Shown here: positions 15,508-18,846 of the stretch, in pieces
Layout: the number at the start of each line of letters is the position of its first letter
Position numbering within the stretch: position 1 is the stretch's first letter
Virus genome (UHGV): UHGV-0384350
DNA from: a virus
DNA length: 43,609 nt
Direction: 5' to 3' (one strand)
Position numbers and translations under genes: made by a program
Notes under the pieces: generated by a model
Databases searched by the model: none
Told to the model about the DNA's origin: nothing
Seen by the model: only the letters and a program-made list of their open reading frames with translations

Positions 15508-15933
15508 TTGAACAAGCAGATATTGGAGCAATACATAGATGCCTGTGAGCTGATTAAGGACACCAAGGATGAGATCCGGAAGCTGAGGAAGCACCGGAGC
15601 CAGATCCAGCAGGACAGTGTTAAGGGCTCTGCGCATGAGTTCCCTTACACGTTACAGACCTACCATCTGGAGGGGATTGGGTATGCAGCCGTTAAGGATC
15701 CGGATGAGCTGGAACGTATGGAAGTGCTGCTGGAGGAGCGGATCCGGAACGCAGAGAAGATTAAGCGTCAGGTGGAAGCATGGCTTAATACAATCTCACC
15801 CAGAATGCAGCGGATTATCCGGTACAGGATATTCGAGGAATTGACTTGGGCGCAAGTGGCGGTTCGGATGGGTCGGAAATCGACCCCAGACGGGATAAGG
15901 AAAGAATTTGAGGCCTTTATGAAGGCTGTGTAA
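15508..15933 (+). CDS. ArpU/RinA-family phage late transcriptional regulator (sigma70 region-4-like)
   Basis: The C-terminal RMQRIIRYRIFEELTWAQVAVRMG is a region-4-like HTH. It lies immediately upstream of the packaging module. Confidence 0.6.
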   Translation: MNKQILEQYIDACELIKDTKDEIRKLRKHRSQIQQDSVKGSAHEFPYTLQTYHLEGIGYAAVKDPDELERMEVLLEERIRNAEKIKRQVEAWLNTISPRMQRIIRYRIFEELTWAQVAVRMGRKSTPDGIRKEFEAFMKAV

Positions 15934-16105
15934 AGTTTTTCCGTTTTTTCCTGTTTTTCCGTTTTCAAAATGTTATAGTGTACCATGAAGCCAAAGGCAT
16001 ACAGCCGACGGCTTACACTTAAATCGACGGTCGCCAGGTGTCACAGCCGGGTGGCCGGTTCGTCTGGCTCTGGTTCCGGTCCAGGGCTGGACGCCCCCCT
16101 TCTTC

Positions 16106-16178
<73 letters not shown>

Positions 16179-16224
16179 TTAGCCTGGTTTAGGGATCTCC
16201 ACCCAGACGTTCCAGGCACAGAGA

Positions 16225-16292
16225 GACATCCTTGAGAGAGGGTGTCTTTTTGTTATGTATACATTGACATTAAAGAACATATGTTCTATACT
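16225..16292 (+). promoter_or_regulatory. Terminator-like hairpin followed by a consensus sigma70 promoter (TTGACA-17-TATACT) whose spacer holds the perfect 14-bp palindrome AGAACATATGTTCT
   Basis: The -35 is at 16264-16269, the -10 at 16287-16292 and the palindrome at 16274-16287. A second extended -10 (TGGTATAAT) lies near 16368-16376. Confidence 0.5.
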
Positions 16293-16409
16293 TTGAAATA
16301 TAAAGAGTCTACTTGTGAGATGTGTAATAATAGCAGGGGGATTTTTTGTATATTCTTTCCATGAAACGTGTGGTATAATGAAAAAAAACGTCGAAATGGA
16401 GAGGTCGAT

Positions 16410-17330
16410 ATGATTATATATTTTTCCAAAATCAATTTAGAATCTACAGAGCTTCTTGAAATGTATAAGAAAGAAGAGATGTTCGATACTATGAGAAAAT
16501 GTATTTTGTCTTTTCTTGAAAATGGAACAGAATATGAAACTGAAGGAAGCTTTAAATCTGATGATGGAGAAGTACATTTTACTAAGACAAAATATCGTTT
16601 ATCGATAGGGTTGAAAGATGATAGTTATGTGTCTGGCGTAATATATAAATCAGCTACGTTATATTATAAACGAATTAATGCTGCGACAGAAGAGGTAGAG
16701 TCCCATTCAATTCCAACGATTGAAGATATTAGATTCTATTTTGATGTAAATAGAGAAATTATTGGATTTCATACAAGAAGTAGGTTTGGTTATCAGGAGT
16801 TTAATAGGGCATTTTCTGGAATAATCAATATGTGTATGGAAAAAAATAATTCACCTCTTAGATTTTCAATATCGCTTTATAACGAGGGGATGGAAATTAA
16901 TGAAATTGAGCGAGAATTAAGAAATATAAAGAATATTAAAAGATTGGAGTTTAATTTTAGATTACCAAATCCGGCTGATGGAAATATGCTGGAGCAGTTA
17001 AATGCTGGATTGACAAATACGGCAGAACTAATGGAAGAAGCAAATGCGAATGCTATGAGTGTGATTTTTGATTCAAATGGTACCATTGGTTTAAATATTG
17101 ATTCTGGGGAAATTAGAGAAAATATTGAGAGAGTAGGTCACTTGTCAAAAGGAATTACGGATAAGGATGCTACTAAAAATGGATATGTTCGTGTTATAGC
17201 CACTGGTAAAGACGGTAAAAAATATACTACAGAAGAGCAGAAACCGATAAAAAGAGAAACTATTGGTGAAACGGCAGAAGAGTTCTTTTTGGCATGCAGA
17301 GATACTATTTTGAATATCTTTTCAAAGTAA
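16410..17330 (+). CDS. Hypothetical cytoplasmic protein (first gene of the AT-rich two-gene cassette); no recognisable family
   Basis: An RBS GGAGAGG precedes the ATG at 16410 (the ORF track starts it at 16368). Its composition is strongly AT-rich compared with the flanks. Confidence 0.55.
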   Translation: MIIYFSKINLESTELLEMYKKEEMFDTMRKCILSFLENGTEYETEGSFKSDDGEVHFTKTKYRLSIGLKDDSYVSGVIYKSATLYYKRINAATEEVESHSIPTIEDIRFYFDVNREIIGFHTRSRFGYQEFNRAFSGIINMCMEKNNSPLRFSISLYNEGMEINEIERELRNIKNIKRLEFNFRLPNPADGNMLEQLNAGLTNTAELMEEANANAMSVIFDSNGTIGLNIDSGEIRENIERVGHLSKGITDKDATKNGYVRVIATGKDGKKYTTEEQKPIKRETIGETAEEFFLACRDTILNIFSK

Positions 17331-17371
17331 AACTAAGGCCATTAATGAAGAGAGGGGAAGAGTGACGAAGA

Positions 17372-18091
17372 ATGATAGAAAGGATAAAAAAGTACAAACG
17401 CTGGAAAGATTATTTTGCAGTAGGCTGTTTTGAGGTAAATATGGCTATTGGTGTCACGGCGATCCTCGGAGTTGTTTTGTTCAAGATGTTTGGAATTTAT
17501 GAGGCATTTTATAACATTCAAGATGATTTAAAACAGATTCTGCTTTCGATTTTAGGTGGGGAGTTTACTTTGTTGGGAATGTCCTTGGCAGGTATGGCTA
17601 TAATTACATCAGTTATATCAACGGAACTCATACGAATCATTAATCTTGTTGATGAAAATGAAACAGTGAATCGTGTTTTATCGCATTTTGAGTTTTCTGC
17701 TTTTAATTTGGCAATTCAAATAGCATATATGTTGGTAATATATTTTTCATTGTTAAGCGAAGCTCCAGTAATAGGAAAATATTCGTTTATAGTTTGCTTT
17801 ATAATAGTTTGTTATCATTTTTTCTTTAATCTTTTTTATATAATTGCATTGATTGGTGAATGTATTAAAATTAATGAAATCAAAAACAAATGTGAGAAAG
17901 TTGCATCGTTAGAAAAAACAACTATAGATATTGCAAATGAGGTTCGAATTGATTATATATTGGCTGTATTATTAAAAGATAGGGGGAATAAGAGCCATTT
18001 GATGAATGCACTGATAGAAATTATTGACAAATCTAATATCTCGGATAAGCAAGCAATAAAAGATTATTTGAAGAAATATTATGGATGGTAA
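17372..18091 (+). CDS. Hypothetical multi-pass membrane protein (about 5-6 TM helices plus a ~90-aa C-terminal soluble region); second gene of the AT-rich cassette
   Basis: It has an RBS GAGGGGAAGAG and hydrophobic helices in its N-terminal two-thirds. Confidence 0.55.
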   Translation: MIERIKKYKRWKDYFAVGCFEVNMAIGVTAILGVVLFKMFGIYEAFYNIQDDLKQILLSILGGEFTLLGMSLAGMAIITSVISTELIRIINLVDENETVNRVLSHFEFSAFNLAIQIAYMLVIYFSLLSEAPVIGKYSFIVCFIIVCYHFFFNLFYIIALIGECIKINEIKNKCEKVASLEKTTIDIANEVRIDYILAVLLKDRGNKSHLMNALIEIIDKSNISDKQAIKDYLKKYYGW

Positions 18092-18246
18092 ATTTTTTCA
18101 TTGCATTTGGTTTATCTTTGATACCGTTTAACATCAATTATACGATAGATAAGTTGTTTCCGCAGGATATTGATTTGATAAAACGCATATCAAAAGTAGA
18201 CGAGTAATGCCCGAGTTCATTATATATAGTGTTTAACAGAGTCATC

Positions 18247-18275
18247 AGAGCCGTCACCGTGCGGCTCTTTTTTCT
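18247..18275 (+). terminator. Rho-independent terminator (AGAGCCG-tcaccgtg-CGGCTCT followed by a T-run)
   Basis: There is a perfect 7-bp GC-rich stem plus TTTTTT, closing the AT-rich cassette. Confidence 0.7.
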
Positions 18276-18357
18276 ATACATAAAAAACAAACACGAACGA
18301 GAGGTGGCCTTAGCTGCCTTTTTTGATTTCAGAAATACAGTCAGATAGGAAGGTGAG

Positions 18358-18846
18358 GTGATGGCAAACAATGGTAACTTAAGACGTTTAAGCCCGAGCG
18401 AAGCTCGAGAATATGGACGCAGAGGAGGAAAAGCATCCGGCGAATCACGGCGTAGGAAGGCCGACTTTCGGAAGATATTGAATGCCCTTCTCACGGCCGA
18501 AATAGACAATCCAGAATGGACGCCGCTGCTGGAGGCATTAGGACTGGACAGCACCTTGGAATCAGCCGTCAACGCAGCCATTATCCGGGAGGCTCTGGCG
18601 GGAGATGTAAAAGCTTATATTGCTATCCGCGACACCTTAGGACAGACCACAAAGTCAGAAGCGGACTTGGAGGAGCAGAAGATACGAACGGCAGCAGCCA
18701 AGGCAAAGACTGGACAGGATGTTGAGGAAGAACCGGAAGACGATGGATTCCTTCAGGCATTTAATGATGCTGCCGATGAAGACTGGCCTGATTTTACAGA
18801 AGAAGCGGAGAACGCAGACGATGAAGAGGAAACGACCGATATTTAA
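18358..18846 (+). CDS. terS: Terminase small subunit
   Basis: The N-terminal HTH-like RLSPSEAREYGRRGGKASGESRR is followed by an acidic C-terminus. The gene lies immediately upstream of, and overlaps, terL. Confidence 0.6.
   Translation: MMANNGNLRRLSPSEAREYGRRGGKASGESRRRKADFRKILNALLTAEIDNPEWTPLLEALGLDSTLESAVNAAIIREALAGDVKAYIAIRDTLGQTTKSEADLEEQKIRTAAAKAKTGQDVEEEPEDDGFLQAFNDAADEDWPDFTEEAENADDEEETTDI

Follow-up and report, generated by a model that had tools for sequence, protein, structure and literature searches.

A candidate RexAB-type defence cassette with a LexA-box promoter in a temperate phage of gut Clostridia

Introduction

Rex, the phage-exclusion system known for longest, still lacks a settled mechanism. 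Just five Rex-type systems have been characterised, from E. coli, Actinobacteria and Pseudomonas. DUF4747 is tied in the literature to lambda RexA, Sbash gp30, CarolAnn gp44 and Butters gp30, each of which has a partner with four transmembrane (TM) helices and a demonstrated defence function. In four of the five described systems the membrane protein is the effector. Lambda RexA has a second activity, the commitment of the prophage to lytic growth.

The membrane partners of lambda RexA and Sbash gp30 (RexB and gp31, respectively) are described as four-TM proteins with both termini and a central loop in the cytoplasm. A RexAB-type system in P. putida prophage P1 (PP_5643/PP_5644) permeabilises the membrane without depolarising it, and the effector chemistry is thus not uniform within the Rex kind. 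Additional DUF4747/CarolAnn operons, 17 cases in all, are controlled by the DNA-damage regulators CapK/CapS and are expressed upon DNA damage (PMC13373217). Current defence finders miss the Rex type, and the PADLOC models of RexA and RexB detect lambda only.

The locus described here lies in a window of 43,609 nucleotides, the whole stretch of viral DNA that was analysed (UHGV virus genome UHGV-0384350). It consists of two genes, here called A and B (Table 1), which share gene order, size class, a four-TM partner and prophage location with all five characterised Rex-type systems. The cassette would extend the Rex type to prophages of gut Clostridia.

Table 1. Features of the cassette and its immediate surroundings, in window coordinates
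Feature	Position	Strand	Details
tRNA-Asn (GTT)	16105..16179	+	ARAGORN; Rfam tRNA 67.5 bits
Left junction of insert, border to hairpin	16181..16217	+	blastn border against siblings L026-L029; no feature assigned
Upstream hairpin and T-run	16218..16253	+	-21.4 kcal/mol, z -6.6; 0/200 shuffles fold as well
P1, distal sigma-70-type promoter, TTGACA-17 nt-TATACT	16264..16292	+	11/12 consensus matches; best site in region
LexA (Cheo/SOS) box AGAACATATGTTCT	16274..16287	.	perfect 14-bp palindrome; fills P1 spacer, overlaps first -10 base
P2, putative promoter, proximal extended -10 (TGgTATAAT)	16371..16379	+	about 31 nt upstream of gene A start
Shine-Dalgarno of gene A, GGAGAGG	16398..16404	+	read from sequence; kept in upstream-region alignment
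Gene A, putative sensor	16410..17330	+	306 aa; DUF4747 / RexA-fold (predicted), cytoplasmic
Gene B, putative effector	17372..18091	+	239 aa; inner-membrane protein, four TM helices (predicted)
Rho-independent terminator	18247..18275	+	stem 18247-18268 and T-tail; -12.9 kcal/mol, z -4.1
'terS'	18358-18846		no Pfam match; named from position overlapping terL

An insert in a variable slot before the terminase genes

The carrier is a temperate phage of gut Lachnospiraceae/Clostridia, and its integrase, ImmA/repressor pair and terminase are all in the window. Positions 16181-18268, which lie between tRNA-Asn and the putative terS, form a discrete AT-rich insert. GC content ranges from 0.25 to 0.36 over 16200-18300 and from about 0.48 to 0.54 in both flanks; the insert averages about 0.31, against 0.46 in the comparison used to judge atypical composition. 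The borders were set by blastn against sibling phages (L026-L029), in which the match ends at 16177-16180 and restarts at 18269-18281. On the right, the border falls within the T-tail of the terminator (18268/18269), with sibling homology resuming from 18269.

The tRNA, the sole match in an Rfam scan of 15900-18400, is the last element common to the sibling phages and forms the left edge of a variable slot. In siblings with 99-100% identical terS and terL, this slot is empty or holds either a HEPN gene or a Dam (D12) methylase; L026 and L029 are among the phages without the insert. Since phages with near-identical terminase genes differ in what the slot contains, the slot is a cargo hotspot and the insert a genuine moron. 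The insert also carries a promoter and a terminator, its composition is atypical, and otherwise near-identical phages may have it or lack it. The view that it was acquired horizontally, as a self-contained moron complete with promoter, operator and terminator, is supported.

These results bear out much of an initial annotation, which had described a self-contained AT-rich block of foreign origin at a classic moron or defence hotspot ahead of the small terminase gene, with an upstream hairpin, a near-consensus promoter, a strong terminator and two tightly linked genes. It had also placed the block between tRNA-Asn and terS; the first landmark is secure, and the second takes its name from position. 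A 40-aa open reading frame (18085-18207) was rejected as a cassette gene, being unconserved in related loci, and hmmscan against Pfam, PADLOC and NCBIfam returned nothing significant for it.

Gene A encodes a predicted RexA-fold protein

The product of gene A (pI 5.2) is free of hydrophobic segments, in keeping with the soluble protein proposed at first (307-320 aa). Its ATG lies 5 nt downstream of the ribosome-binding site, and homologues begin MIIYFSK. The alternative GTG start at 16368, which would give 320 aa, was rejected in view of this shared N-terminus and because it falls within the conserved -10 element of P2.

The initial annotation had assigned gene A to no family; profile and structure searches now point to DUF4747 and the two-domain fold of RexA and RdgC. 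An AlphaFold2 (AF2) model of the protein (pLDDT 87.7) shows three-dimensional similarity to lambda RexA (8TWQ) and RdgC (2OWL). RdgC is the top Foldseek match (E 2.9e-5); among PDB structures, none matches better than RexA. The structural relatives of the model are the same set as that reported for RexA itself (PMC11077077). RdgC, CENP-N, CHL4 and IML3 are related in fold but serve housekeeping recombination or the kinetochore, with neither a membrane partner nor a mobile-element context.

Membership of DUF4747 depends on the model version. A precomputed match to PF15931.11 (E<=1e-5) covers the 320-aa form (P0001) and nearly all homologues, whereas a local search with PF15931.10 matched neither gene A nor 35 close homologues, even at E<=10. 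The older model does match 3 of 55 diverse members of the gene A family (best E 2.7e-9), and HMT_3 of phage HM T, which shares 27% identity with A, reaches 25.7 bits (E 9e-6), slightly short of the 27-bit cut-off. Gene A thus appears to belong to DUF4747 by the newer model and, transitively, through its relatives, whereas the older model does not place it there.

No sequence similarity to RexA itself was detected. Gene A did not match the lambda RexA models of Pfam (PF15969) or PADLOC (PDLC02339), against which lambda RexA scores 1e-97 and 9e-110, respectively. Alignment of gene A family profiles (A1, A4) with RexA by hhalign gave a probability of 0.1%, and a gene A profile gave no signal with CarolAnn gp44, both against single-sequence templates that make the comparison insensitive. 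RexA (8TWQ) was likewise missing from the matches when PDB sequences were searched with phmmer and with profiles. For both A and B, hmmscan against Pfam, PADLOC and NCBIfam returned nothing significant. Among PHROGs, A matched only phrog_10040 (E 9.5e-5), a family of unknown function. Sub-threshold matches to PLCC, PAS_3, Cas_Csa5, DUF2225 and a pyrophosphatase fragment were dismissed as noise.

Gene B encodes a predicted four-TM protein with a cytoplasmic tail

Five to six TM helices and a soluble tail had been proposed for gene B. The tail stands, at about 70 aa, and the helices are reduced to four by both the AF2 model and hydropathy. Four hydrophobic blocks appear in single-sequence and in family-averaged hydropathy, with TM helices at about residues 20-39, 57-81, 101-128 and 137-164, followed by a helical cytoplasmic tail (165-239). 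The AF2 model (pLDDT 81.2) places helices at 20-39, 46-81, 98-128 and 136-179. With six K+R at the N-terminus and 14 along the C-terminal tail, the positive-inside rule predicts an N-in/C-in topology with a cytoplasmic central loop. B would therefore be a small inner-membrane protein of RexB-like architecture, its termini and central loop arranged as described for lambda RexB and Sbash gp31. Four-TM helical proteins are common, which counts against reading B as RexB-type.

Polar or charged residues E21, N112, Y148 and C164, in or near the TM helices, are invariant; H149, N153 and Q116 are nearly so, and the cytoplasmic tail is also conserved. None of 83 homologues of about 240 aa carries a Pfam domain or a name. 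B did not match the RexB models (PF15968; PADLOC PDLC02340), and hhalign of a B profile (A2) with RexB gave a probability of 0.05%, while CarolAnn gp43 gave no signal, again against insensitive single-sequence templates. A Foldseek search of the B model against BFVD produced nothing significant and no named RexB (best E 0.016). We know of no solved RexB structure.

Transcription signals and a LexA box

The cassette is preceded by a terminator-like hairpin, an insulator that seals off the preceding tRNA/regulatory unit, and a similar hairpin lies upstream in three related loci (L011-L013). As a class, promoter-like sites are not enriched in the region, with 12 found and 9.4 expected. A TTGACA...TATAAT pair recurs about 94-145 nt upstream of gene A homologues in six loci (L003, L011, L015, L020, L075 and L087).

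A -10 of the P2 type was recognised by reading the sequences in nearly all loci inspected, including those lacking a LexA box; it is degenerate in three loci, and no clear element was seen in L019. P2 may be an active promoter.

The palindrome in the P1 spacer had been read as an operator of the cassette's own. It is perfect and operator-like as described, but the specific assignment gives way to a host one, as AGAACATATGTTCT fits the LexA operator consensus of Bacillus/Clostridium (Firmicutes), GAAC-N4-GTTC (PMC4234289), and overlaps the promoter of the gene it would regulate. In 8 of the 16 distinct loci the box occupies the space between -35 and -10, its half-sites never varying and its N4 differing from locus to locus; the other half lack it. 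A phage repressor operator is unlikely, given that the GAAC-N4-GTTC core occurs as a single copy in the window and that the box turns up again in phages whose neighbouring genes are unrelated and whose terminases differ in type. No phage-encoded LexA-like gene was found within the window. LexA of the host may thus bind AGAACATATGTTCT, and the cassette is apparently wired to the host DNA-damage response.

Conservation and context of the gene pair

The initial annotation had asked whether the two genes co-occur elsewhere, and they do. In each of the 16 distinct loci examined, including relatives of just 26-27% identity, gene B comes directly after gene A, with 41 nt between them in the window. 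The identities of the two proteins correlate across loci (r=0.97). The cassette is a putative sensor gene followed by a membrane-protein gene, conserved as a pair and, in the window, carried by a prophage. The clade comprises about 200 clusters at 50% identity, which came here mostly from genomes of Clostridia and of their phages. Most loci place the pair immediately ahead of the terminase genes, where early and late regions meet. In Clostridium phage HM T it is found within the lysogeny module.

Comparison with described systems

Although sequence similarity of A or B to lambda RexA/RexB (PF15969/PF15968) is undetectable, the cassette is probably a distant relative of this pair and would join a known kind of phage defence. 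The initial annotation had considered it undescribed, yet its architecture is that of RexAB, Sbash gp30-31, CarolAnn gp44-43 and the P. putida RexAB-type system, the last likened to the cassette by description. Its reading as a sensor plus membrane-effector defence pair remains the best one, backed by architecture and strict pairing.

The closest counterparts are Sbash gp30/31, CarolAnn gp44/43, Toast gp42 and Butters gp30/31, where a DUF4747-related cytoplasmic protein is likewise accompanied by a four-TM protein and defence has been shown by experiment. CarolAnn-type systems and the A-B pair also alike escape the PADLOC models, and PADLOC 2.0 did not detect the cassette. The actinophage systems reside in Actinobacteria rather than Clostridia, and their proteins differ in size (337-372 aa against 306 aa for A; 165-178 aa against 239 aa for B). 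RexB is smaller still, at 144 aa. Its C-terminal domain, the added helical tail, gives B some 60-95 residues more than RexB, gp31 and gp43 have.

Regulation differs as well. Lambda rexAB is co-transcribed with cI from PRM, whereas the cassette has its own LexA-box promoter placed before terS. In having a promoter distant from the repressor it resembles Sbash 30/31. A link to DNA damage is predicted for the cassette as for the CapK/CapS-regulated operons, but here it would be direct, with the LexA box inside the promoter, and upstream lie a tRNA and a hairpin instead of capK/capS.

Functional interpretation

Taken together, the cassette is probably a RexAB/CarolAnn-type two-component abortive-infection or exclusion module whose expression rises in the SOS response. 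To judge from its counterparts lambda RexA, Sbash gp30, CarolAnn gp44 and P. putida RexA, A would probably act as a dimer, bind nucleic acids and sense an infecting phage by way of a phage protein or a protein-DNA complex. A would then activate B, which may compromise the membrane by ion leak or permeabilisation, halting macromolecular synthesis and aborting the infection. P2 could provide basal expression in the lysogen, while P1, occluded at its LexA box, would raise expression upon DNA damage or SOS induction. Full repression of P1 by LexA combined with an inactive P2 would leave the cassette silent in the lysogen, which would count against a role in defence. At 2.1 kb with its native signals, the cassette is a compact, well-delimited candidate member of the Rex type, in which the effector is divergent and a direct SOS input is predicted.

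A more tentative and, on balance, somewhat doubtful proposal is that the clade forms a distinct Rex-type branch, with a B family lacking relatives among known effectors, a C-terminal receiver or gating module, and direct gating by host LexA. The module would in that case be armed mainly on DNA damage, restriction cleavage or prophage induction, the mechanism of B could differ from the RexB ion channel, and SOS-gating could be a general wiring principle for Rex-type systems of Firmicutes.

It is improbable that the pair instead serves the phage itself, with an SOS-induced, RexA-like A aiding lytic commitment, or B acting as a superinfection-exclusion, holin-like or lysis-timing protein during induction. 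The LexA box does place P1 under a prophage-inducing signal, and the usual position just ahead of the terminase genes would suit such a function. However, the box is absent from half of the loci, and siblings with 99-100% identical packaging genes lack the pair, which is thus dispensable for the lytic cycle; other siblings carry unrelated accessory genes in its place. Some copies of the pair lie elsewhere than in phage late regions, in a chromosomal setting (L087) and beside HNH and TIR/SEFIR genes (L085), and the sole holin-like match of B (phrog_3488, E 0.12) is noise.

Reversed roles, with A as the antiviral or toxic effector and B only sequestering or restraining it until infection sets it free, are likewise improbable. 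There is a precedent in Butters, where the RexA-like gp30 is described as the main antagonist and gp31 as dispensable for defence, and strict coupling with correlated divergence fits an interacting pair in either direction. Against this stand the effector role of the membrane protein in most described systems and the conserved residues and tail of B, which appear to exceed the needs of a simple anchor.

Finally, chance resemblance of some other two-gene module (e.g., a toxin-antitoxin or addiction pair, or a membrane transporter with its regulator) would accord with the missing sequence homology to RexA, RexB or any PADLOC model, with a B that has no annotated relative and with the RexA-type fold of kinetochore and recombination proteins, but is unlikely in light of RexA as best structural match, the DUF4747 link and the features shared with every characterised Rex-type system.

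The slot between the late regulator/tRNA and terS, a cargo hotspot in these phages, may be a source of further systems. A PD-Lambda-1 homologue (E 5.7e-125) is encoded in the same prophage.

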